A DNA stretch of 56,798 bases. Source: Candidatus Omnitrophota bacterium (lineage in GTDB: Bacteria; Omnitrophota; Gorgyraeia; 2-01-FULL-45-10). Each line of letters begins with the position of its first letter. Position 1 is the first letter of the stretch. Made by a program: the position numbers and the translations under genes. The notes under the pieces were generated by a model. That model worked only from the letters and a program-made list of their open reading frames with translations, made no database searches and was not told the DNA's origin. This document shows positions 29,453-55,562 of this stretch, piece after piece. The stretch lies in NCBI GenBank assembly GCA_041663425.1, contig JBAYMS010000006.1, forward strand, positions 1 through 56,798, in the 5' to 3' direction.

Positions 29453-29455
29453 GGT

Positions 29456-32044: not shown

Positions 32045-32874
32045 ATATAAAAAGAATGATACAGATTGCGTCTTGTTCGGTGCTTTTGGTGATCGCATAC
32101 ATTCCCACCATACTATGGATGGCTGACAGATGGTTCGCGAAGGAATCATATTACGGCCACGGTATCCTGATCCCTATAGTCTCTTTGGTGATAGTGTGGC
32201 AGAGGTGGGAGATGCTCAAAAAAATAAAGCAGGTAAGCGCGATGTCAGGTCTATGGATAGTCGCCGCATGCTTAGTGATCAACATAGTATGTGCGTCGCT
32301 CAAGATCTATTTTGTTTCAGGCTTCTCTCTCGTAATCGCTATCTACGGAATGATACTATTCTTCTTTGGCAAGGAGATGGTGCGCAATCTGACTTTCCCG
32401 ATATTTTTTCTTCTTGCGATGATACCGCTTCCGCTGGTTATCATAGGCAATCTGACCGTAAAACTTAAGCTATTCGCGGCTCAGGCTGCTACTTTTGTGC
32501 TTAATAAAGTAGGCTTTCCCTGTGTTAGAGACGGTAGTGTTATAGTGATGCCGCATTCACACACGATAGTGGAAGCGCCCTGCAGCGGGCTGCGTTCGCT
32601 GATATCTCTACTGACGCTCGGACTGTTATTTTCTTATATAGTGAAAACAACTTTTGTTAAAAAAGCAGTCATATTCGTATCTTCGGCCCCAATTGCTATA
32701 GTGTCAAATATTGTAAGGATAGTTCTGCTGGCCGCTGTGAATGACCTGTATGGCGAAAAGGTTGCGATGGGGTTTTTCCATGACTTCACCGGGTTCTTAG
32801 TTTTTGCGATAGCTTTTGCCGGATTGTATACTGTATCAAATCTTCTGGAGCCTAAAAAGAATGCCTATCAATAA
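32026..32874 (+). CDS. Exosortase (EpsH/Xrt family transpeptidase)
   Basis: 282 aa, polytopic. The conserved Cys (EAPCSGLRSLISLL), Asn/Arg (SNIVRIVLLA) and His (FFHDFTGF) motifs are all present. Confidence 0.92.
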   Translation: MGEIKVNIKRMIQIASCSVLLVIAYIPTILWMADRWFAKESYYGHGILIPIVSLVIVWQRWEMLKKIKQVSAMSGLWIVAACLVINIVCASLKIYFVSGFSLVIAIYGMILFFFGKEMVRNLTFPIFFLLAMIPLPLVIIGNLTVKLKLFAAQAATFVLNKVGFPCVRDGSVIVMPHSHTIVEAPCSGLRSLISLLTLGLLFSYIVKTTFVKKAVIFVSSAPIAIVSNIVRIVLLAAVNDLYGEKVAMGFFHDFTGFLVFAIAFAGLYTVSNLLEPKKNAYQ

Positions 32875-39021: not shown

Positions 39022-40413
39022 ATGATAAAAACCGATATGACAAAATACCGGATCCTTGTTTTAAATAGCGATAAGTTGCTGCAGAAGTCTCTTTATGAGC
39101 TGCTGTCGCGTTCAGGCTATACAGTAGATATAACCGATTCAATAGACGAGTCTATCGCCTGTTTGGAAGAAAAATCCTACCACCTTGTGCTTACCGATAT
39201 CGACACCAATGAAGGTGTCGAGCTATTGAAGATAATAAAGGGCCAGTCATATCCTGCGGAAGTTCTTGTTTTGACGTCCTACGGCAATATTGATAATGCG
39301 CTGGATAGTGTGGAGATGGGCGCGTTTGATTATCTTGTAAAACCCGTCGAAGATGCAAAGGTTTTCTCTGCGATAGAAAAGGCTCTTGCAAACAAGGCGC
39401 CGGCAGAAGGCGAGCCGGTTATTCAGAAAATAAATCCTAAGGAAGAAACTTTCTACGGCCTTGTAGGTACGATGAAAGACATATATTCACTCATAGAAAG
39501 AATCTCAAATTCAAAAGCCACCATACTCCTGCGGGGCGAGAGCGGGACGGGTAAAAGGGTTATAGCTCGCGCAATACATCAGGCAGATAAGAAGCGCAGG
39601 GATAAGCCATTTATAGAAATGTCATGCGGTGCTCTTCCTCGAGAGATCATTGAAAGTGAGTTATTTGGTCATACGAAAGGCTCTTTCACTGGAGCTATAA
39701 ATGACCGTAAGGGCAGGTTTGAGCTTGCGCATGGCGGCACCATACTTCTTGATGATATAGATTCTTTCTCGCTCGACCTCCAAGTGAAGTTGTTAAGGGT
39801 GCTGCAGCAAAAAGAATTTGAAAGGGTGGGGGATCATAAAACGATGAAGGTAGATGTCCGTATAATCGCATCTACTAACCAGGACCTGGAGAAGATAGTC
39901 GCTGAAAAAAAGTTCAGGGAAGACCTTTATTATCGTCTCAATGTCATATCTATAAATATACCTCCCCTGAGAAAAAGGAAGCAGGATCTTGTGCTTTTGG
40001 TTAACCATTTTATAAATCTTTATGCTAAGGAAAATCATAAAAAGATGGATGGCGTATCCCAGGATGCTTTATCTTTGCTGACAAGCTATGATTGGCCGGG
40101 AAATATCCGAGAGCTCGAGAATATTATCGAGAGAGCGATAATACTCGATATAGATAACGTCATTAAGATGGACGACCTGCCGGAAATTATTACAAAGGCA
40201 GCAAGGCCTGCGGAGCCTGTTTTTGATGCTCAGAACCTGCAGGACACGTCCTCTCTCAGGGATGCGCTTAAAGACCCCGAGAAGGTTTATATATTAAAGA
40301 TACTAGAGGAAGTAGGCTGGAATAAAAAGAAAGCCGCCATAAAACTGGGCGTTAACAGAACGACTCTTTATAATAAATTACGTAAGTATAATCTTGTTCA
40401 GAATCAAAAATAA
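39022..40413 (+). CDS. Sigma-54-dependent transcriptional activator (receiver + AAA+ + Fis-type HTH; PrsR-like position in a PEP-CTERM locus)
   Basis: Walker A GESGTGK, GAFTGA-type loop GSFTGA, Walker B ILLDDI, WPGNIRELEN, C-terminal HTH NKKKAAIKLGVNRTTLYNKLRKY. The N-terminal receiver keeps Asp (LVLTDID), Thr and Lys, but reads LNSD where DD is expected. Confidence 0.93.
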   Translation: MIKTDMTKYRILVLNSDKLLQKSLYELLSRSGYTVDITDSIDESIACLEEKSYHLVLTDIDTNEGVELLKIIKGQSYPAEVLVLTSYGNIDNALDSVEMGAFDYLVKPVEDAKVFSAIEKALANKAPAEGEPVIQKINPKEETFYGLVGTMKDIYSLIERISNSKATILLRGESGTGKRVIARAIHQADKKRRDKPFIEMSCGALPREIIESELFGHTKGSFTGAINDRKGRFELAHGGTILLDDIDSFSLDLQVKLLRVLQQKEFERVGDHKTMKVDVRIIASTNQDLEKIVAEKKFREDLYYRLNVISINIPPLRKRKQDLVLLVNHFINLYAKENHKKMDGVSQDALSLLTSYDWPGNIRELENIIERAIILDIDNVIKMDDLPEIITKAARPAEPVFDAQNLQDTSSLRDALKDPEKVYILKILEEVGWNKKKAAIKLGVNRTTLYNKLRKYNLVQNQK

Positions 40414-40430
40414 AAGGCCTAATTTAATTA

Positions 40431-41477
40431 ATGTTATATAAGGATCTGAATCTTGCAGATCTAGTGAGCCTTGAAGATTGGCAGAAAATTCAGGATCAAT
40501 TCTCTGAGGCGCTGGAAGTAACGCTACGAACCGTATCCCCGGAAGGAAAATATCTCTCCGAAACGAGCCGGTCTAACCGGCTTTGCACTGAAATCCTTTC
40601 TAAAATAAATAATGAGCAGGAAAATTGCGGCAATTGCCTGATAGGCAAAGATGATACGCTGACAGCGCTTGATATAAAAAAGACAACAAGCTTTAAATGT
40701 TCGCTGGGGCTTGATGTTTTTGTTGTCCCGATAACGGCTGTTGGTAATAAAATCGTCGCTTATATAATATTGGGGCCTATAATCCTTAAGTCGCGAAAAT
40801 CAATATCCGAATATACTGAAGACGCGCAGAAAATTGGCATTAAATTAGAAGAGCTTATGGATGCTCTGATAGAGATCAATGTATTTTCCTACAATAAGAT
40901 CCAGACCATAATAAACCTCATCAAAGATACAACTTCATACATGGCTCAGACCGGGTATCATAAGAAACGGCTTGGAGAAATAGCGCCTGAAGTTGTGGAG
41001 CTGGATCCTATATTCTCCAGATATTATGAAGAAAAGATATTGAGTAGCCTTCTTGATTCCTGCACGCTTGCCTTAGGCGCGGATTCCGGTTCTGTCATGA
41101 CTATAGATAAGACCAACAGACTGCATATAAAAGTTGCCTCAAAACTCGATAAAAACATAGTGAAGCAGACGACCATGAGGATGGGGGAAGGCATAGCCGG
41201 CATAGCTGCTCAGACAGCCCAGGCTATAATCCTGCCAAAAGACGAAGATAAGAATAATCTGTCGCAAAAAATGAAAAGACGGGATATCCAATCTTCGATG
41301 ATCGTACCGTTTACTAAAGGGGATGCTCATGAGGTTTATGGGGTAATAAACCTTAATATAGCCAGAAAAGATGTGGATTTCTCCGAAAAGGATATATCTC
41401 TGGTAAAGGAGCTAGTTCATATGGCATCGATAGCGCTTTTCCCGCTGCATAAACAGATCGCTCCGGCCAAGCCCTAA
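40431..41477 (+). CDS. PocR-like sensory domain plus GAF domain protein
   Basis: N-terminal DWQKIQDQFSEALEVTLRTVSPEGKYLSE...C...C resembles a PocR sensor. The C-terminal GAF-like region reads LGADSGSVMTID...MGEGIAGIAAQTAQAIILP. No output domain. Confidence 0.65.
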   Translation: MLYKDLNLADLVSLEDWQKIQDQFSEALEVTLRTVSPEGKYLSETSRSNRLCTEILSKINNEQENCGNCLIGKDDTLTALDIKKTTSFKCSLGLDVFVVPITAVGNKIVAYIILGPIILKSRKSISEYTEDAQKIGIKLEELMDALIEINVFSYNKIQTIINLIKDTTSYMAQTGYHKKRLGEIAPEVVELDPIFSRYYEEKILSSLLDSCTLALGADSGSVMTIDKTNRLHIKVASKLDKNIVKQTTMRMGEGIAGIAAQTAQAIILPKDEDKNNLSQKMKRRDIQSSMIVPFTKGDAHEVYGVINLNIARKDVDFSEKDISLVKELVHMASIALFPLHKQIAPAKP

Positions 41478-41780
41478 AATTTATACTTAAAAAAACGCCT
41501 GCCAAAAAGTAATCAATATTAAGAATATTCCTGTAGCAATAAAAGATAATTAGTGGGTGCCAAGCCTTTATAAACAACTGCCATATATACCATACAAAAC
41601 CCTCCAAGTCAATGTCCTATAATATATCTTATGTTAACTAGGTATATGGGTGAATATTGATATAACTTATTGAATGCCAATGATTTGTATAAATATACAC
41701 ACTTCCTGTGGATAATCTTTATTTCTGCGTTACCTATTTGTTATAGACTTGTATATCTTATAATAAATTCATACCTGCCC

Positions 41781-41808
41781 TTGCATTTACTGATTCTTAT
41801 GATATAAT
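41781..41808 (+). promoter_or_regulatory. Candidate sigma-70 promoter with extended -10 (TTGCAT-N16-TGaTATAAT)
   Basis: -35 at 41781-41786 and -10 at 41803-41808 preceded by TG. It lies 30 nt upstream of the glgC ATG. Confidence 0.55.
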
Positions 41809-41838
41809 TATCTACATACTAACGAAAGGTTTGAAATC

Positions 41839-43092
41839 ATGAAAAGAGTTATAGCTTTAATTTTAGGCGGCGGCCAAGGTAAACGTCTTTTTCCATTAAC
41901 AATGTACAGGTCTAAACCAGCAGTTCCAATAGGCGGCAAATATCGCCTTATTGACATTCCTATAAGTAATTGCCTGCATTCAGGCCTTAAAAACATCTAT
42001 GTTTTAACGCAGTTTAATTCCGAGTCTCTTAATAACCACATTAATAACACCTATCGTTTTGATTACTTTTCAAGGGCATTTGTCCGCATATTGGCTGCTG
42101 AACAGACGGTAGATAATACAAACTGGTTTCAAGGCACGGCTGATGCGGTCAGGCGCAATCTGCTTCATCTCGAGCTTAAAGGCGATGAGGAAATATTAAT
42201 ACTCTCAGGTGATCATCTTTACGATATGGATTATCGCGAATTAGTTAACTATCACAGAGAGAAAAAAGCTGACTTTACAGTTTCTGCGATACCTGTTTTA
42301 GAAAAAGAAGTCCGTGAATTCGGTATTCTCAGAATGTCCGGTGATGGCAGAATTTTGAGTTTCAAAGAGAAGCCAAAGACTAAGCCTGAATTGAAAGGTT
42401 ATAAATTTGCCTCCCCCAAAGCCTTCTTCAACCAGTCTGCCGCAAGCAGCTATTATCTTGCATCCATGGGTGTTTATGTATTTAATGCGGGAGCTTTAAT
42501 GAAGGCGCTTGCCGGAAATGATACTGATTTTGGTAAGGAGGTTATCCCCCATTCTATAAAAACTTTAAAAGGGGTCGGGTATATATTTAATGGCTATTGG
42601 AAAGATGTTGGAACTATAAGGTCTTTCTATGATGTAAACATGGGCATAGCAACCTCTAAAGCACAATTCTCGTTTTTCTATAATGGATCAGTCTTTACCA
42701 GGCCTCGGTTTCTGCCTTCCGCAAGAATATTTAGCTCCAGGATCGATAACTCGCTTATAAGTGAAGGATCTGTTATCCAAGATGCATCTGTGAGTAACTC
42801 TATGGTCGGGTTGAGGTCTATTATAGGAAAAGGCTGCCGTGTTTCCCGTGCGGTGCTCATGGGCGCTGATTACTTTGAAAGCCCGGAATCTAAAGATCTT
42901 TTACCTATAGGAATCGGAGACGGAACTGTTGTAGACAAGGCTATAGTAGACAAAAACGCACGCATAGGTAAAAATGTTACGATAAGAAACTCCAAAGGAC
43001 TGAAGAATTTTGATGGTGAAAATTACTTTATAAGAGATGGAATAGTGATAATACCAAAGAATGCCAGAATAAAGTCCGGAACTACTATATAA
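41839..43092 (+). CDS. glgC: Glucose-1-phosphate adenylyltransferase
   Basis: LGGGQGKRLFPLT, SKPAVPIGGKYRLIDIPISNC, ILSGDHLY, and a C-terminal LbH domain. Confidence 0.93.
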   Translation: MKRVIALILGGGQGKRLFPLTMYRSKPAVPIGGKYRLIDIPISNCLHSGLKNIYVLTQFNSESLNNHINNTYRFDYFSRAFVRILAAEQTVDNTNWFQGTADAVRRNLLHLELKGDEEILILSGDHLYDMDYRELVNYHREKKADFTVSAIPVLEKEVREFGILRMSGDGRILSFKEKPKTKPELKGYKFASPKAFFNQSAASSYYLASMGVYVFNAGALMKALAGNDTDFGKEVIPHSIKTLKGVGYIFNGYWKDVGTIRSFYDVNMGIATSKAQFSFFYNGSVFTRPRFLPSARIFSSRIDNSLISEGSVIQDASVSNSMVGLRSIIGKGCRVSRAVLMGADYFESPESKDLLPIGIGDGTVVDKAIVDKNARIGKNVTIRNSKGLKNFDGENYFIRDGIVIIPKNARIKSGTTI

Positions 43093-44005
43093 TGGTTTGT
43101 TTGCAGTAAATCCCCTGATGGGTGCCTCGTTTTTTTAAGGTATCACCTATAAGGTTTATGGTTTCTATCTTATTTAATGCCCAGATAGGAGCTATGTGGT
43201 TTGATTTATCCCCCTCCCCCGTTAGCCTTTGTATGATTATATTAGGTGAAATATTTTCCAGGAAGTCGCATGCCAGTGCAACGTACTGAGCCTGTGACAT
43301 TACTTTTACATCCCCTTTTTTATATAGTTTTTCAATCGGACTTCCCTTGAGTATATGAAGAAGGTGGATTTTTACGGCGTTAACCTTAAGATTGCTGAGT
43401 GTTTGCGCTGTTTCGATCATATCCTTTTTTGTTTCGCCGGGAAGCCCGAGTATTACATGTGCGCATACGGGGATGTCGAATTCTCTTGATAGTTCCAAAG
43501 CCGCAAGAAAATCCTCAAAAGTATGGCCTCTGTTTATGCTCTCAAGCGTTTTGTTATGTATAGACTGCAGCCCGAACTCCAGCCAGACCTCATATTTATT
43601 TTTATATGAAGATATTAGTTTGATTTTATCCTTATCTACGGCATCGGGGCGTGTTCCTATTGTCAGGCCTACGATTTCATTGAAGTCTTTTATCTGGTCG
43701 TAAGTCTTTTTTAGCGTGTCTACCGGAGCGTATGTGCTTGTGAACGCCTGGAAATAAGCGATAAACTTGTCGGCCGATTTCATCTTTTTTAAATATGTGA
43801 TACGCGAGGCAAGTTGTGTTTTTATATCTTCGGCAGGCTTTGTATATGAAGATCTTGAGCCGTTGTCGTTACAGTAGAGACAGCCATTGTAGCCTTTGGT
43901 GCCGTCGCGATTAGGGCATGAAAATCCACCGTCCAGTCCTATGCGGTAAACTTTACCGCCGTACTTATCTTTAAGATACGAACTGTAGTCATTGTAAAGT
44001 TTCAT
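43085..44005 (-). CDS. TIGR01212-family radical SAM protein
   Basis: N-terminal [21 protein letters not shown] cluster typical of the TIGR01212/YhcC family. ATGA overlap with the mnmG stop. The 3-prime end overlaps the glgC end by 8 nt (convergent). Confidence 0.88.
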
Positions 44006-45813
44006 GATTTTTTCGGCTTCTTCGCTTTTCTCCGTTCATTTTCAATATAAACCATGAGGATAGATATTGCCGCCGGTGTTACGCCGGAAATTCTTGCAGC
44101 TTGTCCTAGATTTACCGGTTTTATTTTTTTAAGTTTTTCGCGTATTTCTGAAGACAGACCGTCTACTTTTATATAATCAAGCTTTTCCGGGATTTTTACT
44201 TTTTCTATTTTATCCAGCCGGGCGATCTCTCTTAACTGTCTTCTTATATAACCTTCGTATTTTATTTCTGTCTCGATCGTCCTGATCTCTTCGCAGGAAA
44301 ACGGTCCGGTCGCTTTTTCGTCTGCAACATCTTTGTATGAAGCATCCGGCCTGCGCAGAATTTTTTCAAGACGTGTTTTTTTAAGGCGCGCGATCTCGTT
44401 CTTAATGCGCTCTTTTTTTTCGGTAGTTTTTTTGTAGGCATCATCATTTATCAGGCCGATAGCATGACCTATGTCTGCAAGGCGCAGGTCTGCGTTGTCT
44501 TCCCGAATCAGCAGCCGATATTCAACGCGGGATGTGAACATGCGGTATGGCTCGGAAGTGCCTTTAGTAACCAGGTCATCTATTAATACGCCTATGTAGG
44601 CCTGCGAACGGTTCAGCACTAGCGGTTCTTTACCTTTGATCTTTAAGGATGCGTTTATGCCTGCCATTAGTCCAAGGCTGGCAGCTTCTTCATATCCGGT
44701 CGTTCCGTTTATCTGACCAGCCAGATAAAGGCCCCGCATTATCTTAGTTTCAAGCGTAGGATATAGCTGTGTCGGATCTGCGTAATCATACTCGATGCCA
44801 TAAGCGGGCTTTACTATCTTTGCGTTCTCGAGGCCTTCTATCGAAGCGACCATTTCTTTCTGGACGTCTACCGGCAGACTTGTTGATATGCCGTTTGGGT
44901 AATATTCTGTAGTGCTGCGGCTTTCCGGCTCCAGAAATATATGATGCCTTGTGCGCTCTGGGAATCGATATACTTTGTCCTCGATAGATGGGCAATATCT
45001 TGCACCAGTACCTTTTATTACTCCTGTAAATAGCGGTGACCGATCCAGGTTTGAGCGTATTATTTCATGGGTTTTTTCATTCGTGTAGGTAATATAACAA
45101 GGCATCTGTTCGCGCGTTATTTTATCTGATTGGAATGAAAAAGGTGTAAAATCGGCATCTCCGCGCTGCATTGGAAGTTTATCAAAATTTATGCTAGTAC
45201 CATCTATCCTGGCGCAGGTCCCTGTCTTGAGCCTGCCCAATTTTAAACCTATATTCTTTAAAGAGTCGGACAGCTTTTCTGAAGCCTTCTCCCCTATCCT
45301 CCCCCCTGCATAATGTTCCAGCCCTATATGTATGAGCCCATTTAAGAATGTTCCAGTTGTTACTATTGCAGCCTTAGCAGAGTAAATGTCACCCACAGAT
45401 GTTCTCACCCCTGTTATTGAGCCATTTTTAGTTATCAGATCTTCGGCCATGCCTTCCCTAATATCAAGACCTGCCTGATTTTTCACAACAGACTTCATGT
45501 AGTTGCAATATGCATGCCTATCGACCTGAGCGCGGGAAGAGCGGACCGCAGGCCCTTTTCTGGTGTTTAGCAAACGGAATTGTATGGCTGTGGCGTCGGT
45601 TGCCCTGGCCATCCATCCGCCTAATGCACCTATCTCTTTGACGAGCTGACCTTTTGCAAGCCCGCCTATGGCAGGATTACAGGATAGGGCGCCTATCGTG
45701 TCAGCGCTCATAGTAAGAAGCAGGGTTTTGCAGCCCATCCGGGCAGCAGCCAGGCTTGCTTCGCAGCCTGCGTGGCCTCCCCCGATTACTATAATATCGT
45801 ATTCGTTTTTCAA
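44002..45813 (-). CDS. mnmG: tRNA uridine 5-carboxymethylaminomethyl modification enzyme MnmG (GidA)
   Basis: [18 protein letters not shown] motif and full-length collinearity with GidA. TTG start. Confidence 0.95.
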
Positions 45814-46014: not shown

Positions 46015-47169
46015 TTAAAGGCTTATGATCGAATCGAAGGTCCCAAAGGCGTTCTGGACGCGTTCAGAATTTTGCGAATCGAGCACCCACTCACCGTCTA
46101 TTACAAATTTATACTTATATCTTCCCGAGGAAAGGCCGAGGTTTTTCTCCCATTTGCCATCAGACCCTCTGGATAAGCGGCTTTTTTCATCCATCTTCCA
46201 ATGGTTGAAATCACCAACGATATAAATATCTTTTGCTGCAGGTGCATCTACCGCAAATCGGATCTCTCTAGATAGTGATTTGACGCTGTCTATTAACGAA
46301 GGTGCTTCTGCGGAAACCGTATCGGACTGTGCTTCTTCCGAAGAAGTTATTACCATTATTGCTTTTTCAATATCGTCGGACCTCTGTTTTTTCTCTATTT
46401 CCAGCGTATCGTATTTGGTGATCTCTTTGGCCAAGGCGGTATAATCGATCGCGCCGTTTGATTCAGGGTCGAGCTGGAGCACAGAAACGCCTTTTGATGC
46501 AGCTTTTTTAAGCGCCACATTCATTCTTATGATCGTTTCCAGCATTTGTTCTTTGAATAATGATTTTATCTCGTCGAACATAACCTGGGAATATTTTTTT
46601 CTCTTGTCGAATATGGTAGCGACGGCGCTTACTCTGGGCGAGTGGTTGATCTTAACTTTTATAAGTTCCAGCATTCCAAGCAGTTTTGCAACGCCCATAA
46701 GTGAGAATGCGCTCATGTCTATAGGAACTAATACCGTGTTTGCTGCTCTTAAAGCGTTGAAAGTCAAGAAACCTAGAGAAGGCGGGCAATCAATTATAGC
46801 GTAGTCATAATCAAGCTGTTCTGAGGACAGTATGTCGTGAAGTTTTGAGACGGCGTCCTCTTTGTCCTTTAATTCCTGTTCAATAGTGCTGAGTAATATG
46901 CTGGATGGTATAACGTCTAAATTCTTGGATACATTTAATATGCAATCCGCTAAGGAGCGGTTTCTTTCGGTGTTGTCTGTAAGGATATTGTAAATAGATT
47001 TATCAGAGGCTTGGTTCGTAAGACCCAATCCGTATGTGGCATGCGCCTGAGGATCAAGGTCTATGAGAAGTATTTTTTTACCGGAAACTGCAAGAGCGCT
47101 GGATAAGTTTATTGCCGTAGTCGTTTTACCGCAACCACCTTTTTGATTTGCTATAGATATAATCTTCAT
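46015..47169 (-). CDS. ParA/Soj-family ATPase fused to a C-terminal glycogen-binding CBM48 (AMPK-beta GBD-like) domain
   Basis: - Deviant Walker A NQKGGCGKTTTAINL and a ParA-like core over about aa 1-260.
- An acidic linker.
- C-terminal IRFAVDAPAAKDIYIVGDFNHWKMD...GKWEKNLGLSSGRYKYKFVIDGEWVLD matches the AMPK1_CBM/CBM48 pattern.
- ATG 47169 follows GGGAGA; the ORF track starts at TTG 47196. Confidence 0.85.
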   Translation of the reverse strand: MKIISIANQKGGCGKTTTAINLSSALAVSGKKILLIDLDPQAHATYGLGLTNQASDKSIYNILTDNTERNRSLADCILNVSKNLDVIPSSILLSTIEQELKDKEDAVSKLHDILSSEQLDYDYAIIDCPPSLGFLTFNALRAANTVLVPIDMSAFSLMGVAKLLGMLELIKVKINHSPRVSAVATIFDKRKKYSQVMFDEIKSLFKEQMLETIIRMNVALKKAASKGVSVLQLDPESNGAIDYTALAKEITKYDTLEIEKKQRSDDIEKAIMVITSSEEAQSDTVSAEAPSLIDSVKSLSREIRFAVDAPAAKDIYIVGDFNHWKMDEKSRLSRGSDGKWEKNLGLSSGRYKYKFVIDGEWVLDSQNSERVQNAFGTFDSIISL

Positions 47170-47275
47170 AGCTAATCTCCCAAGTTTGTTAAGCAATGCA
47201 ACTTACTAAGTGCCTATATCTCTGATATAGGCCAAGTTTATTCATTTGTAATAATATATAACAAATACATAAATA

Positions 47276-48091
47276 TTACAAATGTTTTTTCGCAAAATTT
47301 ACACCATTTGTAAATATGCTAAGCCCGTCTCCCTCCTCCCTGACCGGTCCGTTATTTTTAATCCTGGTCCAGCAAGGGTTCTGATAAAAAGATATATGTC
47401 TTTCCGGATGCGGCATTAATCCGAATATCCGCCCGGTTTTGTTGCAGATTCCCGCTATGTTTTCTACGGAGCCGTTAGGGTTGTCTGGATAGCCTTTTCT
47501 TTGTCCGTCTTCATCCACGTATTCCAACGCTATCATCCCTTCTGCTTTAAGGGTTTTAAGTATTTTGCTGTCCCGTGGAATGAATTTTCCTTCTCCATGA
47601 GCTACGGGCAGGTGTATGACTTTATCTATCCCCTTCGTCCATATGCATTTATTGGCTGCTGCCTGATTTTTAACACGCTTTAAATATACCCAGCGGTCTT
47701 CAAATTTGTTTGAATCGTTCAGCGTAAGAGTTGCTTCTATAGTTTGGCAATCTCCGGATAAGTTTGGCAGAAGCCCTGCCTTAACCAGTATCTGGAAGCC
47801 GTTGCATATGCCGATTATGAGTTTTCCGTCCGAAATGAATTTTTGTAAACCGTCTTGCAGTTTATAGGTCAGCTCATTTGCAAGGATCTTTCCGCTTGCG
47901 ATGTCATCGCCATATGTGAATCCGCCCGGCAGTGCAAGTATCTGGCAATCGTTCAGCTTCCGCCTGCGGCCGGTAAGCTCGTTTATATGAACAAATTCTG
48001 TTTCTGCGCCGGCAACCTCAAAAGCGAACGCTGTTTCTTTGTCGCAATTTGTTCCGGCTGTTCTCAGGACTATGACTTTTGGTTTTCTCAT
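47276..48091 (-). CDS. purQ: Phosphoribosylformylglycinamidine synthase, glutaminase subunit PurQ
   Basis: Class I amidotransferase triad (GICNGFQ, MPHPER). ATG 48091 forms an ATGA overlap with the purL stop; the ORF track starts at TTG 48115. Confidence 0.9.
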   Translation of the reverse strand: MRKPKVIVLRTAGTNCDKETAFAFEVAGAETEFVHINELTGRRRKLNDCQILALPGGFTYGDDIASGKILANELTYKLQDGLQKFISDGKLIIGICNGFQILVKAGLLPNLSGDCQTIEATLTLNDSNKFEDRWVYLKRVKNQAAANKCIWTKGIDKVIHLPVAHGEGKFIPRDSKILKTLKAEGMIALEYVDEDGQRKGYPDNPNGSVENIAGICNKTGRIFGLMPHPERHISFYQNPCWTRIKNNGPVREEGDGLSIFTNGVNFAKKHL

Positions 48092-50976
48092 AATTGTGCG
48101 AACGGCTTTTGCCAAGCCGCCTTAAGTTTAGATATCTCTGTTTTTATTATAACTTTATCATCGGTGCCGGATATTTTAAATGTGCTGTTATTTGTTGCGC
48201 AGCCCAATTTCCATATAGGGGCACCTTTCATTGACTGAGCAAATGTTTTTTCATCCGCAACCTCTACGACAAAACGTGTATTTGATTCAGAAAATAAAAG
48301 AGTTTCATTTTTTAATATTTTCTGAGCGTCAGGTTTTTTGTATTCGTTTAAATTTATGTCCATACCCAAGCCGCCGGCGAATGCCATCTCCGCCAAAGTT
48401 ACGGCCAAGCCGCCCTCTGAGCAATCGTGGCAGGATGCTACACATCCTTTAGCTATGGATCTTGTGAGAGCTTGCAGGACCTTTTTGCTGTAAACAGGAT
48501 CTAGCATCGGAACGCTGTTGCCGAGAAAGCCTTTTGTCTTGTAGTATTGCGATCCGCCCAGCTCGTCTTTGGTCAGGCCGACTAAATAGATTGAGCTGCC
48601 AGGTTTTTTCAGATCCATCGAAACGGCTTTCGTTATATCATCCATGACCGCTATGCATGATATAAGCAGCGTCGGAGGTATCGAAATAGTTTTTTTGCCG
48701 GTGGAGTACTCATTGTTCAGGCTGTCTTTGCCGGATATGAAAGGCACGCCGTATGCTTTTGCAATATCATAGCAGGCCTGTGATGCCCTTACCAGAGAGC
48801 CTAATCTGTCCGGCTTATTTGTATTGCCCCAGCAGAAATTGTCGAGAATCGCAGCTTTGGTCATATCTCCGCCGACCGAAACTATCTGGCGTAAGGATTC
48901 GTCTATTACGCTTGCGGCCATCCAGTATGGATCGATCTTGCCGTAATCAGGATTTATTCCGCATGATAGTATTATGCCTTTTCTTGAGCTTAGGATCGGC
49001 CTGGTTATGCTGGCATCCCCCGGTCCGCACCCTACGCCCTGCAGAGGTTTTAAGACGCTGCCGCCCTGGACTTCGTGGTCGTACTGACGGATTATCCATT
49101 CTTTGCTGGCTATGTTGGGATTTGATAAAAGGGTGAGCAAATCTCCGGTTAGATCTTTTGCCGTTGATGGTTTAGGTTCGGCAAATTTTTGTTTCTTCCA
49201 TATAGCTTTTCGGCTTATATCGGGTCCGCCGTTATGTATGAAGTCCATGTCCATATCGCATACGGATTCGCCATTAAAGAATAGTTTCAGGTGTCCGTTC
49301 CCTGTAAATTTACCTATGACGGTAGCTTCAACATTTTCGCTTTCAAATATTGCTGTCAGTTCATCTACTTTTTCGGGAGATACGGAAAGCACCATACGTT
49401 CCTGCGCTTCCGATATCCATATTTCATCGTAATTAAGGCCTTTGTATTTTAATGGGACTTTTTCGAGGTAGACTTCTGCTCCAAGCTCCTCACCCATCTC
49501 CCCTACTGCGCTTGACAGGCCGCCCGCGCCGCAATCTGTCAGAGCGCTGTAAAGCCCGAGATCGCGTGCTTTCAACAGAGTGTCTGCGACCTTTTTTTCC
49601 TGGATAGGATTGCCTATCTGGACTGCTGAACCTGATGTGCCTTTTGATTCATGCGTCAGCTCACCGGATGAGAATGTTGCACCGTGTATGCCGTCCCTGC
49701 CTGTTCTCCCGCCTACTACGACTACGAGATCGCCTTTGCATACTTTTTTAAAGGATTTATTTTTCGGCATTATGCCCACATTGCCGCAGAATACGAGAGG
49801 GTTGCCGACAAAATTTTCATCAAATAATACAGCACCATTTGTGGTCGGGATGCCCATTCTGTTGCCGTAATCACGCACTCCGGAAACCACACCTTTCATT
49901 ATCCTTTTGGGGTGGAGGGCGCCCTTAGGTAGTTTTTTATAAGGATAATCGGGGTAGCCGAAACAGAAAACGTCGGTATTGATTATGGGTTTTGCGCCTA
50001 AGCCGGTTCCCATGGGATCGCGGATGACACCTCCTATGCCGGTGCCTGCGCCGCCGTAAGGTTCCAGCGCTGAGGGGTGGTTGTGTGTCTCGACTTTAAA
50101 GCATATGTTGTTTTCTTCGTCGAAGCGTATAATGCCTGAATTGTCATGGAAGACAGAAACGCACCATGGTCTATTTAATTCTTTCGTTACTTTCATTATC
50201 GTGGATTTAAGGAGATTGTCTATTGTTGTGACTTTTGCGCCTTTACCCTTGCCGCCTTCCTCCCTATATTCTATTTTTCCTCTGAATGTCTTATGCTTGC
50301 AGTGTTCAGACCATGTCTGCGCTATGGTTTCAAGTTCGCAGTCGGTCGGATTACGGCCAAGTTTTTTAAAATAGCGCTGTATGGTCTTCATCTCTTCGAT
50401 GGATAAAAATAGCTGACCGTTTTTAGACATGACCTGCAGTTTTTTATCGTCGGCGTTAAGGATCTCTACGTATCGGACTTTGAACTGATAAACAGGTGTC
50501 TGGTGAATATGGCTGGAAGTTTTTGTAACAACGTGCTGGATTACTTTATTGTATAAAATCTTTTCGGCAATAGAGTGGATATCGCTGTAAGATAAATCGC
50601 CGCGGATCAGATATTTTTTGGCCGTCTTTAAGGACTTGATTCCTTTTATGCCGAGATCATCGATAGCTTTTTTTGCGCTGTCTTCAACAGGATCCATAAC
50701 TCCGGGGTTGTATGCGATCTCAACCACCTTGTAATTCTTTTCGTTAAAAACATTTCCGTCATATTTATATTCCTGCGTAACCGGATCGATGAGCAGGCCT
50801 TCGCATATTTTTTTTATATCGCGTTCATCAATGTCTCCATCGATAAGATAAACCTGAACGGTTTTGACTTCTTTTACCTTATTTTTGAATCCAATATCTG
50901 AAATATCTTTTCTTGCCGATTCGCCGAGCGTATCGCAGAAACCTGCCTTTTCCCGGACTTCAACTCTCCACAGCAT
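48088..50976 (-). CDS. purL: Phosphoribosylformylglycinamidine synthase PurL with two N-terminal PurS-like modules (PurS-PurS-PurL fusion)
   Basis: AIR-synthase-like duplicated PurL core (SEHCKHKTF, ETHNHPSALEPYGGAGTGIGGVIRD). It is preceded by about 220 aa containing two PurS-like units. ATG 50976 overlaps the guaA stop (TAATG); the ORF track extends to 51102. Confidence 0.88.
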   Translation of the reverse strand: MLWRVEVREKAGFCDTLGESARKDISDIGFKNKVKEVKTVQVYLIDGDIDERDIKKICEGLLIDPVTQEYKYDGNVFNEKNYKVVEIAYNPGVMDPVEDSAKKAIDDLGIKGIKSLKTAKKYLIRGDLSYSDIHSIAEKILYNKVIQHVVTKTSSHIHQTPVYQFKVRYVEILNADDKKLQVMSKNGQLFLSIEEMKTIQRYFKKLGRNPTDCELETIAQTWSEHCKHKTFRGKIEYREEGGKGKGAKVTTIDNLLKSTIMKVTKELNRPWCVSVFHDNSGIIRFDEENNICFKVETHNHPSALEPYGGAGTGIGGVIRDPMGTGLGAKPIINTDVFCFGYPDYPYKKLPKGALHPKRIMKGVVSGVRDYGNRMGIPTTNGAVLFDENFVGNPLVFCGNVGIMPKNKSFKKVCKGDLVVVVGGRTGRDGIHGATFSSGELTHESKGTSGSAVQIGNPIQEKKVADTLLKARDLGLYSALTDCGAGGLSSAVGEMGEELGAEVYLEKVPLKYKGLNYDEIWISEAQERMVLSVSPEKVDELTAIFESENVEATVIGKFTGNGHLKLFFNGESVCDMDMDFIHNGGPDISRKAIWKKQKFAEPKPSTAKDLTGDLLTLLSNPNIASKEWIIRQYDHEVQGGSVLKPLQGVGCGPGDASITRPILSSRKGIILSCGINPDYGKIDPYWMAASVIDESLRQIVSVGGDMTKAAILDNFCWGNTNKPDRLGSLVRASQACYDIAKAYGVPFISGKDSLNNEYSTGKKTISIPPTLLISCIAVMDDITKAVSMDLKKPGSSIYLVGLTKDELGGSQYYKTKGFLGNSVPMLDPVYSKKVLQALTRSIAKGCVASCHDCSEGGLAVTLAEMAFAGGLGMDINLNEYKKPDAQKILKNETLLFSESNTRFVVEVADEKTFAQSMKGAPIWKLGCATNNSTFKISGTDDKVIIKTEISKLKAAWQKPFAQL

Positions 50977-52517
50977 TATTCCCACTCTATCGTTGAGGGC
51001 GGCTTTGAACTTATGTCGTAAGCTACCCTGTTTACGCCTTTCACTTCGTTTATGATTCTGTTGGAAATTTTTCCAAGTACATCGTATGGTATCTTGGCCC
51101 AATCTGCGGTCATTCCATCGACGCTTGTTACGGCGCGGATCGCTACCACGCTTTCATATGTGCGCTCGTCTCCCATAACGCCAACCGATTTTATCGGCAG
51201 CAGGACTGCGAATGCCTGCCATATCTGGTCATATAGCCCTTCTTTCCTTAAAACCTGAATAAATCTGTCGTCAACCTCTCTTAATATGTCGCAGCGTTCT
51301 TTTGTGATGTCGCCGATTATGCGGACAGCTAAGCCTGGTCCCGGGAATGGATGTCTTCCGAGGACCTCGGCGGGTATCCGGAGCTCCTTACCAACTTTCC
51401 TTACCTCATCTTTAAAAAGATATTTCAACGGCTCAATGAGTTTCAGATTCATCTTTTTAGGTAATCCGCCCACATTATGGTGTGTTTTTATGGTAGCGCT
51501 TGGGCCGCCGAATGCTGAGCGCGATTCAATGAGGTCGGGATAAAGCGTTCCCTGGGCCAGGAATTTAACACCGCCTATCTTTTTAGCTTCGCGATCGAAA
51601 ACTTTTATGAATGTCCTGCCGATTATTTTCCGTTTCTTTTCCGGATCAGCAACCCCTCGTAGCGCTACGAGGAATTCTTCAGAAGCATCCACTACTTTCA
51701 GGTTCAGCTTAAAATGTTTTTGGAATACCTCGCGGACGAGACGCGCTTCATTTTTTCTTAGTAGACCATTGTCAACGAATATGCAGGCGAGTCTGTGTCC
51801 TATGGCTTTATTTATAAGAATGGCGGCTACGGAAGAATCGACCCCTCCGGATAGTCCAAGTATCACTTTATCTTTGCCGGCAGTTGTGCGTATCTCGTCT
51901 ATGGTTTCTTTGACAAAAGATTTCATGGACCAGTTGCATTTGGCCGAGCATATGTCTTTTACGAAATTTTTCAGCACTTCTTTACCGTATTCGGTATGGG
52001 CTACTTCAGGATGGAACTGAACGCCGAATAAATTTTTATCAAAATTTCCAAAGGCTGCCACTGAAGTATTTTTCGACATTCCTATCCGTTTAAAATTGCG
52101 CGGCATTGTCTTTACCTTGTCGCCATGGCTCATCCAGGTGATGCTATTTTTGGGGATCTTCGTAAATAATAAGCGGTGATTAGCTACCGTGAAAGTGGCG
52201 CGTCCGTATTCTCTCGAAGGCGCTCTGTCAACCTTTCCTCCCAGAGTCTTTGCCATAAGCTGCATTCCGTAACATATACCTAAGACAGGTATCCCCAGAG
52301 AAAAAAGTCTGGGGTCGCAGGTTGGCGCACCTTTAGCATATACGCTTGCCGGTCCGCCAGACAGAATAATGCCTTTGGTTTCAGATAAATTTATCGACTC
52401 TATGGATATTGTCGGAGGCACTATTTCGCAGAATACGCTAAGCTCGCGTATTTTCCTTGCAATAAGCTGATTGTATTGCGAACCGAAGTCTAATATTAGT
52501 ATTTTTTCTTGTGCCAT
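50976..52517 (-). CDS. guaA: GMP synthase (glutamine-hydrolysing)
   Basis: GATase domain (GICYGMQ, HPE), ATP-PPase P-loop GLSGGVDSS, and the canonical C-terminus PPSTIEWE. Confidence 0.97.
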
Positions 52518-52518
52518 T

Positions 52519-53925
52519 TTATTTAATAGTTAGCCCTGCGCAGCGGGTTTTCTCAAGAGCTTTTTTTGAAGGCGGTTTACATATCTTAGTCGGATAGTCC
52601 CCGTTAAAACATGCTGTGCAGAACTCTTCCTTCGGCAGCATCATCGAATCAAGCATGCCGTCAAGGCTCAGGTATTCGAGGGAATCTACGCCTATAAAAT
52701 CCCGTATCTCTTTTATCGTATGGTTAGAGGCTATCAGTTCTTTCTTTGTCGGGAAGTCTATACCGTAAAAGCACGGCGAGATAAGCGGCGGGCAGCTTAC
52801 TCTCATGTGTATCTCTTTTACTCCTGCCTGGCGAAGTGCCCGGACTCTTCCACGCGAAGTTGTGCCCCGCACAATAGAATCCTCAACTATTATTACTCTC
52901 TTATCTTTTAATACATCCCGGATCGGATTGAGTTTAACTTTCACTTTAAAATCCCTGATGAGCTGGCTTGGCTGGATGAAGGTTCTCCCTATGTAGTGAT
53001 TGCGGACAAAACCCATCTCGAGAGGTATTTTTGACTCCTCCGCATAACCGAGCGCGGCATAAGTGCCGGAGTCGGGTATGGGCATTACCATGTCGGCGTC
53101 TACCGGATGCTCTTTTGCTAGTGTCCGTCCCAGATTTTTCCGTGTCAGATAAACGCTTTTAGTGAAGATGTTGCTATCCGGCCTCGAGAAGTAAATATAT
53201 TCAAATATACAGAAGGCGTGTTTTTTCTGCTGCTGCGGTTTCAGTGATGTAATGCCGCTTTTATCTATTATTACGATCTCTCCCGGCTCAACATCGCGTA
53301 GGTATGTTGCCTGCAATATATCCAGTGCGCAGGTTTCGCTGGCGACAATATATGTGTCGCCGAGCTTGCCTATGCAAAGCGGACGGAAGCCGTGAGGATC
53401 CCTCATGGCATATATGGCATCGTTTATCATAATGACAAACGAATAGGCACCTTCCATGCGCTGGGCGATAGGCATTATTTTGGATCTGTAATTATTCTGA
53501 TGGTCGCGCACAAGGAAATGGACAATCAGCTCTGAGTCCATCGTTGTTTGAAGTATGGAGCCGTTGTCCTCGAGTTCATTTCTTAACTCGACGGAGTTTG
53601 TGAGATTGCCGTTATGAGCTACGGCTATGAAACCTTTTTTGTGGTTTATGAGCAGCGGCTGTACGTTTTTAACCGTGCTTGAGCCCGTAGTCGAATATCG
53701 GACATGGCCTATAGCCATCGAGCCTTTTAGTTTTTTAAGATCGGCTTCTTTAAAAAGATCACCGACCAGACCCATGCCTTTATGCAGATGAACTTTTTTA
53801 CCATCGAAACTTACTATACCGGCTGACTCCTCGCCTCTATGCTGGAGCGCATATAGCGCCAGATAGGCCATTTGACTGGCGTTTTTATGTCCAGAAATCC
53901 CTACGACTCCACAATACTCTTTCAT
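52519..53925 (-). CDS. purF: Amidophosphoribosyltransferase
   Basis: N-terminal nucleophile Cys ([10 protein letters not shown]), PRTase motif [13 protein letters not shown], and C-terminal Cys residues for an Fe-S cluster. Confidence 0.95.
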
Positions 53926-55511
53926 TTTAATGTCTTTCCTGCTAGTTTTAGGTGATAATCCTGCAATGGTTTTACAGATATTTTTTTATGTTTCATCATG
54001 TTTTCAATACCGTTTACCGACGCCTGTGCGCCCGAGATGGTTGTGATAAGCGGAACGTTATGAAGGATCGCATGTGAACGTATTTTGGTTTCATCCTCCT
54101 TAGTTGCCTTGCCTGACGGAGTATTTATTATGAGAGCGACCTTACCGTCTTTCATGAGGTCCAGTATGTTCGGTCTTGCCTCTAGCAATTTTGGTATAAC
54201 CTCGACATCTATGTCGCTGCTTCTTAAAGCGTCGGCTGTCCCGGGAGTGGCCATTATTTTGAATCCAAGGTCAAAAAGTTTTTTGGCTATAAATATAATA
54301 TTGCGCTTGTCCTGATTTTTTACGCTTATAAAAACATTGCCTGACATCGGAAGGTTCTGTCCTGCCGCGATCTGGCTTTTTGCATAAGCGGCTCCGAATG
54401 TTGTGTCTATGCCCATCACCTCACCGGTCGATTTCATTTCCGGCCCGAGGATCGCATCTACACCTGGAAAGCGGATAAAGGGAAACACGGATTCTTTTAC
54501 GCAGACGTAGTTGATAGTCTTCTCTTTTGTGAAGCCCAGATCTTTTAATTTCTTACCAAGCATTATTTTTGTTGCCAGCTTTGCGAGTGGCGCTCCAATT
54601 GCTTTACTTACAAACGGAACTGTTCTAGATGCGCGCGGGTTTACTTCCAGGATGTAGACTATATTATTTTTTACGGCATACTGGACGTTCATCAGACCTT
54701 TAACCTTAAGCTCCATAGCCATGGCGTATGTATTTTTCCGGATGTTGTCAATTATATCTTTACCTAAAGTATGCGGCGGCATTACCATTGCGCTGTCGCC
54801 GGAGTGTATGCCGGCCTCTTCGATATGCTCAAGTATTCCGCCTATTACACACGTATCGCCGTCTGCTATAGCGTCTACATCGACTTCTATGGCATCTTCT
54901 AAGAATTTGTCTATAAGGATGGGGCGCTCGGGCGATGCCTCTATCGCTCTGGACATATAGTCTGTTAGGCCTTTTTCATCGTAGACGATCTCCATTGCCC
55001 TTCCACCCAGGACAAAGGATGGGCGCACGACAACCGGATAACCTATACGGTTTGCAACCTGTGTTGCCTCGTCGGGCGAAGTGGCTGTCCCGTTGTCAGG
55101 CTGGATCAGTTTCAGTTTTTTGAGCATCTGCTGAAAACGTTTCCGGTCTTCTGCTATATCGATGGAATCAGGGCTTGTTCCCAGGATGTTGAGACCTGCG
55201 TTTGCCAGCGCACCTGAGATATTAAGCGGGGTTTGTCCTCCGAACTGGACTATTGCGCCCATAGGTTTCTCTATGTCTACTATGCTCATGACATCTTCAA
55301 CGGTGAGAGGTTCGAAGTATAATTTATCAGAGGTATCGTAATCGGTCGAAACGGTCTCCGGGTTGCAATTTATCATTATACTTTCCACGCCTTCTTCTCT
55401 TAGCGCAAATGAGGCATGGCAGCAGCAGTAATCGAATTCTATTCCCTGCCCTATCCTGTTGGGGCCTCCACCTAAGATCAAAACTTTCTTTTTTTCCGGA
55501 GAATTGGTCAT
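53922..55511 (-). CDS. carB: Carbamoyl-phosphate synthase large subunit, C-terminal half only (second ATP-grasp plus MGS-like allosteric domain)
   Basis: Collinear with about residues 555-1073 of full-length CarB (VLILGGGPNRIGQGIEFDYCCCHA, NCNPETVSTDYDTSDKLYFEP, EVNPRASRTVPFVSKA, GPEMKSTGEVMG). ATG 55511 is preferred over GTG 55529. ATGA overlap with the purF start. Confidence 0.9.
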   Translation of the reverse strand: MTNSPEKKKVLILGGGPNRIGQGIEFDYCCCHASFALREEGVESIMINCNPETVSTDYDTSDKLYFEPLTVEDVMSIVDIEKPMGAIVQFGGQTPLNISGALANAGLNILGTSPDSIDIAEDRKRFQQMLKKLKLIQPDNGTATSPDEATQVANRIGYPVVVRPSFVLGGRAMEIVYDEKGLTDYMSRAIEASPERPILIDKFLEDAIEVDVDAIADGDTCVIGGILEHIEEAGIHSGDSAMVMPPHTLGKDIIDNIRKNTYAMAMELKVKGLMNVQYAVKNNIVYILEVNPRASRTVPFVSKAIGAPLAKLATKIMLGKKLKDLGFTKEKTINYVCVKESVFPFIRFPGVDAILGPEMKSTGEVMGIDTTFGAAYAKSQIAAGQNLPMSGNVFISVKNQDKRNIIFIAKKLFDLGFKIMATPGTADALRSSDIDVEVIPKLLEARPNILDLMKDGKVALIINTPSGKATKEDETKIRSHAILHNVPLITTISGAQASVNGIENMMKHKKISVKPLQDYHLKLAGKTLK

Positions 55512-55521
55512 TGTTTGCCTT

Positions 55522-55562
55522 AAAAACACGAAAGGCCAGCAGAGACGATCGTCCCTCTGGCC
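55522..55562 (-). terminator. Terminator-like hairpin and U-run inside the carB-half leader (candidate attenuator)
   Basis: Minus strand reads GGCCAGAGGGACG-AT-CGTCTCTGCTGGCC (55562-55534; 13 bp with one bulge and one mismatch), then TTTCGTGTTTTT (55533-55522). It ends 10 nt before ATG 55511. Confidence 0.55.

Follow-up and report, generated by a model that had tools for sequence, protein, structure and literature searches.

ATPases of the ParA/MinD superfamily position DNA, carboxysomes, chemoreceptor arrays, flagella and division sites, and to our knowledge they always do so via separate adaptors; the organisation and inheritance of bacterial glycogen granules are, as far as we know, essentially unstudied. 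Here we describe a gene that encodes a ParA/Soj-type ATPase fused to a carbohydrate-binding module (CBM) of family 48, of the type found in the beta subunit of AMP-activated protein kinase (AMPK). It lies on a 56,798-nucleotide contig of a Candidatus Omnitrophota bacterium (JBAYMS010000006.1, assembly GCA_041663425.1), the whole of which is called the window below. The best-supported reading of the evidence is that the fusion protein would tether or position glycogen granules by way of the nucleoid. The gene and its parts are as follows.

46015-47169, minus strand: complete ParA-CBM48 fusion gene, 384 amino acids (aa), ATG start, stop codon at 46015-46017 (open reading frame (ORF) list, Pfam, homologues)
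46405-47169, minus strand: ParA/Soj-type deviant Walker A ATPase domain, aa 1-255 (AAA_31, alignment to 8RAY, AlphaFold2 (AF2) and Foldseek)
47119-47142, minus strand: deviant Walker A motif KGGCGKTT, aa 10-17, with signature Lys10, Walker Lys15 and family-specific Cys13 (sequence)
46273-46404, minus strand: linker, aa 256-299, a helical extension and then a disordered part (AF2 and family alignment)
46018-46272, minus strand: AMPK-beta-type CBM48, a predicted glycogen-binding module, aa 300-384 (Pfam, AMPK alignment, AF2)
47176-47180, minus strand: Shine-Dalgarno-like GGAGA, 6 nt 5' of the ATG at 47169 (sequence)

An in-frame TTG at 47196 would serve as an alternative start and add nine residues, but it is unlikely to be used because every homologue opens with MK(T/I)I.

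An earlier note, made from the letters of the window alone, had recognised both domains by the strings KGGCGKTT and VGDFNHW...GRYKYKFVIDGEWVLD, both of which are found in the protein, and profile searches bear this assignment out. Pfam places AAA_31 on aa 1-176 (E=2e-55) and, with a further match to CbiA (E=8e-20), covers aa 1-229; at the other end AMPK1_CBM (PF16561) matches aa 312-381 (E=6.4e-11, 42.8 bits against a cut-off of 26.8 bits) and CBM_48 (PF02922) matches aa 302-361 (26.0 bits against a cut-off of 22.4 bits). The closest solved structure to the ATPase half is the chromosomal ParA of Myxococcus xanthus, 8RAY (E=1.8e-47; E=5e-48 over aa 2-255), and the solved Soj proteins of Thermus thermophilus and Helicobacter pylori match as well, while the C-terminal 75 aa match the CBMs of AMPK beta1 and beta2 (E about 4e-7). 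An AF2 model built on an alignment of 120 homologues, with a mean predicted local distance difference test score (pLDDT) of 80, has a ParA fold, a helix at 238-280 along which pLDDT falls, a disordered stretch at 278-298 (pLDDT <50) and a beta-sandwich at 300-383 (pLDDT 87-93). When this model was compared with the PDB by Foldseek, Soj/ParA structures came first, with a template modelling (TM) score of 0.89 and a root-mean-square deviation of 2.2 Å, ahead of McdA, ParF, MinD, BcsQ (TM 0.75) and FleN.

Residue conservation was counted over 82 family members from many phyla. In the ATPase half K10, G11, G12, C13, G14, K15, T16, D37, D39 and D127 are invariant (82/82); D37 and D39 (IDLDPQ) align to D58 and D60 of M. 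xanthus ParA, and D127 (IIDCPP) aligns to Walker B. By motif, aspartates and fold the protein is a member of the ParA/MinD deviant Walker A superfamily, and the cysteine of KGGCGKT is a hallmark of its family. Since the required residues are present, ATP-dependent sandwich dimerisation and hydrolysis are predicted. R190, in the motif DKRTKYS, occupies the position of Bacillus subtilis Soj R189, which we take to be the non-specific DNA-binding arginine, and is kept in 81/82 members. The position of Soj R218, which is that of M. xanthus R238, holds K or R in 67 of the 82, and in M. xanthus ParA R238 was the residue mutated to abolish DNA binding (Thanbichler paper). The window's sub-clade has A219 there, with a compensating K222 nearby, and position 221 is K or R in all members but one (81/82). 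Binding of the nucleoid by the fusion protein is predicted from these basic residues.

In the CBM W324, W340, Y353 and W361 are invariant (82/82). The HMMER alignment places W324, K354 and W361 on W100, K126 and W133 of AMPK beta1, and F375 and D379 correspond to the loop residues L146 and N150; for these sugar-contact residues we assume the residue numbering of the rat AMPK beta1 CBM. Of the 82 members, 72 have K or R at position 354 and 81 have N or D at position 379, a pattern that would suit binding of glycogen. The linker between the two halves measures 22-121 aa across the family and is of low complexity, with motifs that are lineage-specific and none shared across phyla. Because it is disordered in the AF2 model and varies in both length and sequence, we regard it as a flexible tether rather than an allosteric connector. 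An activator peptide acting in cis from within the linker was also considered, as the window's 'DIEKAIMVIT' and the 'EFEKAL' of its relatives resemble the Φ-x-K-x-Φ of ParB; it was rejected as a family feature because such motifs differ from lineage to lineage and the basic residue varies.

The fusion proved to belong to a large family in several phyla, much wider than the earlier note had assumed, and not to be an oddity of Omnitrophota. All 120 homologues listed for the window protein carry both halves in one ORF, at 56-87% identity, and among these matches every one with a named source is Candidatus Omnitrophota; the 120 listed for a Myxococcota member likewise all carry both halves in one ORF, and at each of the 84 genomic loci that were compared (numbered with an L below) a single ORF matches the ATPase half and the CBM half. 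Since the halves share one ORF in every homologue and locus examined (120/120, 120/120, 84/84), an assembly chimera, which the note had named as a way for its idea to fail, is ruled out. A scan of one genome per GTDB species gave at least 570 relatives, and the best 80 nearly all span residues 1-384. The fusion occurs in at least six phylum-level groups, including Omnitrophota, Myxococcota, Desulfobacterota, Planctomycetota (Sedimentisphaerales and Pirellulales), Auribacterota, Margulisiibacteriota and Eisenbacteria. A complete 6.25-Mb Myxococcota chromosome encodes it, with AAA_31 and AMPK1_CBM confirmed by Pfam, and the Myxococcota-type clade of fusions is large and uniformly fused. The high-GC clades of Myxococcota type and of Planctomycetota type are clearly distinct. 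The NCBI labels of L006 and L008 ('Planctomycetia' or 'delta proteobacterium') look unreliable, as both cluster within the Omnitrophota clade; L008 has the synteny of the window and L006 lacks it.

A search with the CBM alone was dominated by multi-repeat CBM48 proteins and told little about the distribution of the fusion. These tandem-repeat proteins (P0121-P0270) are abundant and are the closest relatives of the fusion's CBM48 subtype outside the fusion family; they typically have four copies in ~480 aa, with up to 18 copies and lengths of up to 6207 aa.

To place the ATPase half, a neighbour-joining tree of ATPase domains was rooted on Escherichia coli MinD, with 100 bootstraps and four canonical ParA/Soj proteins sampled. 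The fusion ATPases of all phyla are monophyletic in 100/100 bootstraps and are sister to ParA/Soj, the four canonical proteins being monophyletic in 97/100. Pairwise identities are 39-49% between fusions of different phyla, 35-45% between fusions and canonical ParA, and 43-58% among canonical proteins; the Myxococcota fusion shares 38% identity with M. xanthus ParA and 42-47% with the fusions of other phyla. Because its ATPase clade is separate from chromosomal ParA/Soj, the fusion looks like a dedicated 'orphan' relative of ParA that has a cargo module of the carbohydrate-binding kind.

The components of a ParABS system were not found around it. A tblastn search of the window for a Spo0J homologue (E<=1) returned none, in keeping with the earlier note's statement that no parB stands beside the gene; no ParB homologue was found within 10 kb of the fusion gene at the 84 loci; and a search of the window for the parS-like TGTTNCACGTGAAACA with up to three mismatches gave 0 matches against 0.95 expected by chance. 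Genome papers on Omnitrophota are silent about ParB. Extra 'ParA' ORFs near fusion genes were weighed as chromosomal ParA and set aside, that of L027 being of the exopolysaccharide tyrosine-kinase type and those of L083 being ArsA-like. The window itself has a second ParA/MinD-superfamily gene, at 11764-12603, which encodes an AAA_31 tyrosine-kinase-like protein.

The gene context points to a partner. ParB contacts ParA and stimulates its ATPase through the N-terminal motif LG(R/K)GL, and residues L11, R13, L15, L18 and I19 of the M. xanthus ParB peptide have been dissected functionally. At 64 of the 84 loci a same-strand gene adjacent to the fusion encodes a ParB-like N-terminal peptide, compared with 44 of 966 background genes (4.6%). 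The consensus of the partner peptide is (K/R)(K/R)LG(R/K)GLx(D/E)Φ(S/A)xΦ(F/Y)LS, with KKLGRGLEDFSHLFLS (L056) and PKLGRGLSDVSRFFLSG as examples; the N-terminal peptide of the L019 partner is EEIYEHLAQVYLGKK. Myxococcota have the variant 'PRDLxDVLHYFLP', Auribacterota, Margulisiibacteriota and Sedimentisphaerales have '..ISHFFLS', and the gene upstream of the fusion in Omnitrophota has KDIYEHLAKIYLD and 'LADIYFS', both with the Φ-x-x-Φ-[YF]-[LF] half. In Desulfobacterota, Bdellovibrionota, Eisenbacteria and at other loci the partner with this consensus is encoded immediately 3' of the fusion. Outside Omnitrophota the rest of the partner is a MinD-family domain that resembles FleN/FlhG and has a degraded P-loop; a profile built from 12 such partners gave E=1.2e-32 against FleN and E=2e-28 against FlhG. 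In these lineages the activating peptide of ParB has apparently been transplanted onto a pseudo-ATPase. Downstream partners of this kind include the following.

L056, 4476-5462: FleN/FlhG-like partner
L063, 6024-6875: FleN/FlhG-like partner
L081, 3770-4695: FleN/FlhG-like partner
L053, 11128-12045: FleN/FlhG-like partner
L060, 11179-12033: FleN/FlhG-like partner

The fusion also retains much of the pocket that receives such a peptide. Of the ten positions that make up the ParB-peptide pocket in M. xanthus ParA, seven are unchanged or conservatively changed in the fusion (L150 as L132, L152 as F134, L155 as F137, L187 as L169, L192 as I174, Y81 as Y60 and E117 as E99). The changes are V116 to Q98, D110 to a hydrophobic residue (L92 in the window) and E82 to N or D (N61 in the window), and they are compatible with a partner peptide that is itself modified and extended. 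The earlier note had suggested that the covalently attached CBM takes the place of an adaptor. This is too simple, because 64 of 84 loci have a neighbour with a ParB-like peptide and the fusion keeps most of the pocket, although the window itself lacks an adjacent partner.

The surroundings of the gene in the window include three further features.

41839-43092, plus strand: glgC (glucose-1-phosphate adenylyltransferase), 2.9 kb from the fusion (NCBIfam NF002772 equivalog, 553 bits against a 537-bit cut-off)
44002-45813: mnmG, directly downstream of the fusion with 200 bp spacing
47212-47232: perfect 9-bp inverted repeat GCCTATATC-N3-GATATAGGC in the spacer between purQ and the fusion, ~40 nt upstream of the start codon

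Genes in the window and in its nearest relatives run purF-guaA-purL-purQ-fusion-(small membrane protein, LOG)-mnmG-(radical SAM)-glgC, with the end of purQ 107 bp upstream of the fusion gene. The inverted repeat in this spacer has no T-run after it on the coding (minus) strand and could be an operator or an RNA hairpin. The glgC gene, which the earlier note had correctly placed about 3 kb away, is also near the fusion in L001, L003, L005 and L008. This synteny of glgC and mnmG is confined, among the 84 loci, to about seven closely related ones of a single Omnitrophota sub-clade, and neither adjacency was retained as a functional link for the whole family. The link to glgC that the note had drawn thus stands for the window's sub-clade but not family-wide, and the adjacency to mnmG, which it read as the usual par neighbourhood, is the synteny of one sub-clade and not the relic of a par locus.

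Some observations on this neighbourhood may be added. The end of glgC (43092) and a radical-SAM gene (43085-44005, minus strand) converge with an 8-nt overlap, and at ~40000-44000 GC skew and AT skew change sign where coding switches from plus to minus, which may merely follow gene orientation. Immediately upstream of glgC lie genes for an NtrC-type sigma-54 activator (39022-40413, plus strand) and a PocR-GAF sensor protein (40431-41477, plus strand), an arrangement that hints at sigma-54-dependent regulation nearby; rpoN (sigma-54) itself is at 6961-8271 on the minus strand.

The larger Omnitrophota clade has a different conserved, same-strand cluster around the fusion (24-36 loci; L015-L054 and others, for example L019:7853-11834 and L021:6272-12715), and none of its other genes occurs in the window. 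They encode an Alginate_exp-type outer-membrane porin; a glycoside hydrolase of family GH57, two genes upstream of the fusion at 24 loci (PF03065, E=1.6e-65); a ~190-aa single-pass membrane protein composed of the N-terminal peptide, a Lys-rich stretch, a transmembrane helix and a beta-rich domain (36 loci); a small membrane protein of ~108 aa; a protein with a Lys-rich tail and a barrel like EF-Tu domain 2 (32 loci); and often DUF134. Searches of Pfam and NCBIfam gave no meaningful family match for the Omnitrophota partner, the small membrane protein or the Lys-rich protein. The GH57 has no signal peptide and opens directly with its catalytic N-terminus, and its nearest solved relative is a GH57 amylopullulanase (E=3e-81; PMC12106739). 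In the clade of Myxococcota type the fusion is followed by two unannotated genes, and a phosphoglucomutase/phosphomannomutase (PGM/PMM)-type mutase lies ~4.4 kb away. With glgC in the window's sub-clade and GH57 at 24 loci, two independent lineages therefore set the fusion beside alpha-glucan enzymes. Glycogen synthesis has been inferred for most of the Omnitrophota metagenome-assembled genomes (MAGs) examined (PMC8542988).

We propose that the fusion protein ties glycogen granules to the nucleoid and positions them there, with the outcome that granules would be distributed over the chromosome and inherited together with it, and we put the chances of this at about even. On binding ATP, the N-terminal domain would dimerise through its signature lysine, and the dimer would attach non-specifically to nucleoid DNA by the equivalent of Soj R189 and the basic residues around it. 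The CBM48, at the end of its flexible linker of 22-121 aa, would hold the surface of glycogen, an alpha-1,4/alpha-1,6-glucan, with two stacking tryptophans and a basic residue. Many weak and reversible links of this kind could tie the granules to the nucleoid, and ATP hydrolysis would free and renew the links, so that granules spread on the chromosome instead of clumping or being pushed aside. In most lineages hydrolysis would probably be triggered by the product of the neighbouring gene with its ParB-like activating peptide; in the window's lineage, with no adjacent partner, it may be intrinsic, stimulated by DNA, or set off by a partner encoded elsewhere. A broader proposal, which we advance more tentatively and hold at somewhat less than even chances, is that these genes constitute a widespread, dedicated partition or positioning system for a polysaccharide storage granule, made up of a Soj-derived ATPase with a built-in CBM48 and, in most lineages, a partner that borrowed the peptide of ParB.

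Several observations weigh against granule positioning by way of the nucleoid. First, cargo that is bound in cis offers no obvious cargo-stimulated depletion gradient of the sort that the diffusion-ratchet model has. Second, the partner is anchored in the membrane in Omnitrophota, resembles FlhG/FleN in other lineages, and is not obviously bound to a granule; this geometry fits a membrane-linked role as well as a nucleoid-linked one. Third, the window lacks the partner that most members have, as neither a search of its ORFs for the partner motif nor tblastn with the partner families found one. A profile search for a relocated copy of the Omnitrophota partner matched 10 proteins, none of them on the 710-kb, 732-kb and 56.8-kb contigs of the window's sub-clade, although this word-indexed search is insensitive for a divergent family. 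Fourth, proximity to glgC is limited to one sub-clade, and a motif scan for signatures of GlgA, GlgB, GlgP, GH13 and MalQ near the 84 loci found none. Fifth, CBM48-like domains can bind other alpha-glucans or oligosaccharides, a specificity that sequence does not reveal, and in the literature searched we found no ParA reported to place glycogen granules at regular positions. Finally, ultra-small cells have been reported for many Omnitrophota (PMC10066038), and at that size active positioning of granules seems less needed.

Among other explanations the one that survives best, though we consider it unlikely, is that the protein senses glycogen status: CBM48 would read the stored glucan, as in AMPK, and tune a ParA-type output that acts on something else. 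Replication initiation, placement of the division site or a membrane complex reached through the partner are candidate outputs, given that Soj acts on DnaA and that MipZ, PomZ and MinD act in division-site placement. The CBM is indeed of the AMPK-beta type, which in AMPK is a regulatory domain, the ATPase belongs to the sister group of Soj, and the conserved partner with its activating peptide is not obviously attached to glycogen. A disordered linker of such variable length and without a conserved motif nevertheless speaks against a defined allosteric interface between CBM and ATPase, and in no lineage are replication or division genes conserved beside the fusion.

A somewhat poorer case can be made, by analogy with BcsQ, for an organiser of an alpha-glucan machine in the envelope, one of synthesis, export, import or degradation, in which the ATPase with its membrane-anchored partner would place or build the complex, CBM48 would hold the polymer and the nucleoid would take no part. 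This would suit the 24-36 Omnitrophota loci that cluster a porin, GH57, the peptide-bearing membrane protein and a small membrane protein, as well as the weak BcsQ-family similarity of the fusion and the FlhG/FleN-like partners of other phyla, which belong to a family acting at membranes. However, no synthase or transporter is conserved in the Omnitrophota cluster, its GH57 lacks a signal peptide, and the window has none of the cluster genes; the Soj-type DNA-binding arginine is kept in 81/82 members, and Soj/ParA structures are well ahead of BcsQ as matches to the model (TM 0.89 against 0.75). We regard this explanation as rather improbable.

That the protein is simply the chromosomal ParA (Soj) of Omnitrophota, with ParB and parS encoded elsewhere and CBM48 as an accessory, is very improbable: its best sequence and structure matches are chromosomal ParAs, it sits beside mnmG, it retains most of the ParB-peptide pocket, and the search for ParB covered the window and the 10-kb flanks at the 84 loci, but its ATPase clade is separate from Soj/ParA in 100/100 bootstraps, the fusion is also present in Myxococcota, whose model species has an essential canonical ParABS (as the Myxococcota MAGs presumably do), ParB is missing within 10 kb at 84 loci and parS from the window, the mnmG adjacency belongs to one sub-clade, and V116, D110 and E82 of the pocket are replaced in a way that matches the different, extended peptide of the neighbouring gene.

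Full-text literature searches found no paper on a ParA-CBM48 fusion or on ParA-dependent positioning of glycogen, and the Omnitrophota genome papers do not mention the fusion. In the source annotations the homologues are called just 'AAA family ATPase' or 'chromosome partitioning protein', labels that mislead genome-based inference in Omnitrophota and other uncultured phyla. What would be new here is a ParA/MinD positioning ATPase with a polysaccharide as its class of cargo and with cargo recognition in cis; in addition, partners built on unrelated scaffolds apparently reuse the activating peptide of ParB, which bears on the evolution of specificity between ParA proteins and their partners. 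If the broader proposal of a dedicated granule system is true, glycogen would join chromosomes, plasmids, carboxysomes and chemoreceptor arrays as cargo actively organised by ParA; the positioning hypothesis is directly testable using two small domains.

Elsewhere in the window, a large exopolysaccharide cluster of the PEP-CTERM/exosortase type occupies ~8500-38600 on the plus strand (22348-32874 lay outside the scan). It contains genes for a Wza-like protein, a GNVR chain-length protein, an AAA_22 ATPase, the AAA_31 tyrosine-kinase-like protein of 11764-12603, an epimerase, an ABC-2/Wzt transporter, many glycosyltransferases, a DUF3485 (EpsI-like) protein, a sugar transferase and a PEP-CTERM protein. 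At 8513-9505 (plus strand) one ORF joins an N-terminal MerR-type helix-turn-helix (HTH; aa 6-43) to a Wza-like Poly_export domain and SLBB, an odd pairing of DNA binding with polysaccharide export that recurs in a called gene of L001 (20290-21152); in L027 the HTH stands alone in a 62-aa ORF ahead of the export protein. On the minus strand, the purL ORF at 48088-51102 was called from a TTG and overlaps guaA by 127 nt, so that its true start is probably internal; the purL orthologues of L001 and L003 start with a PurS domain, which points to a PurS-PurL fusion. Also on the minus strand, 53922-55529 encodes a half-size protein of 535 aa like the large subunit of carbamoyl-phosphate synthase (preATP-grasp, ATP-grasp, MGS). 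L003 has a full-length carB of 1090 aa in its place, and the copy in the window could be a split or reduced carB.

Of the systems already described, chromosomal ParA/Soj (8RAY, T. thermophilus 1WCV, H. pylori 6IUB and B. subtilis) is the closest. The fusion has the same fold (TM 0.89) at 37-41% identity and shares the signature-lysine Walker A, Walker A', Walker B, the R189-type arginine and most of the partner-peptide pocket. Unlike these proteins, it has a C-terminal linker and CBM48, an invariant cysteine in KGGCGKT and a clade of its own, it has no parB or parS nearby, and its presumed cargo is a polysaccharide instead of DNA.

The orphan positioners (McdA-McdB for carboxysomes, ParC/PpfA for chemoreceptor arrays, PomZ-PomXY and MipZ) resemble the fusion in being ParA/MinD ATPases that are not dedicated to DNA segregation. 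The nucleoid would probably be the matrix for the fusion too, and in most lineages there is a partner bearing an N-terminal activating peptide. These systems recognise cargo only through a partner or adaptor, whereas the cargo module of the fusion is within the ATPase itself, and its partner is a membrane-anchored protein or an FlhG-like pseudo-ATPase with no evident cargo coat. In structure the fusion is nearer to Soj than to McdA.

BcsQ, which organises the complex for cellulose secretion, and FlhG/FleN are MinD/ParA-superfamily proteins of polysaccharide or envelope machines. The similarity of the fusion to BcsQ is weak and below family cut-offs, and we know of no description of a BcsQ or FlhG with a fused carbohydrate-binding domain. 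The N-terminal effector peptide of the fusion's partner outside Omnitrophota can be likened to the helix with which FlhG activates FlhF. With the CBM of AMPK beta (1Z0M, 1Z0N, 4YEF) and the CBM48 of GlgB and isoamylase, the C-terminal module shares the Pfam models, the tryptophans, the basic residue and, in the model, the beta-sandwich. In AMPK beta and GlgB, however, the module sits on a kinase scaffold or a GH13 domain, whereas in the fusion it is carried by a P-loop ATPase at the end of a disordered linker.

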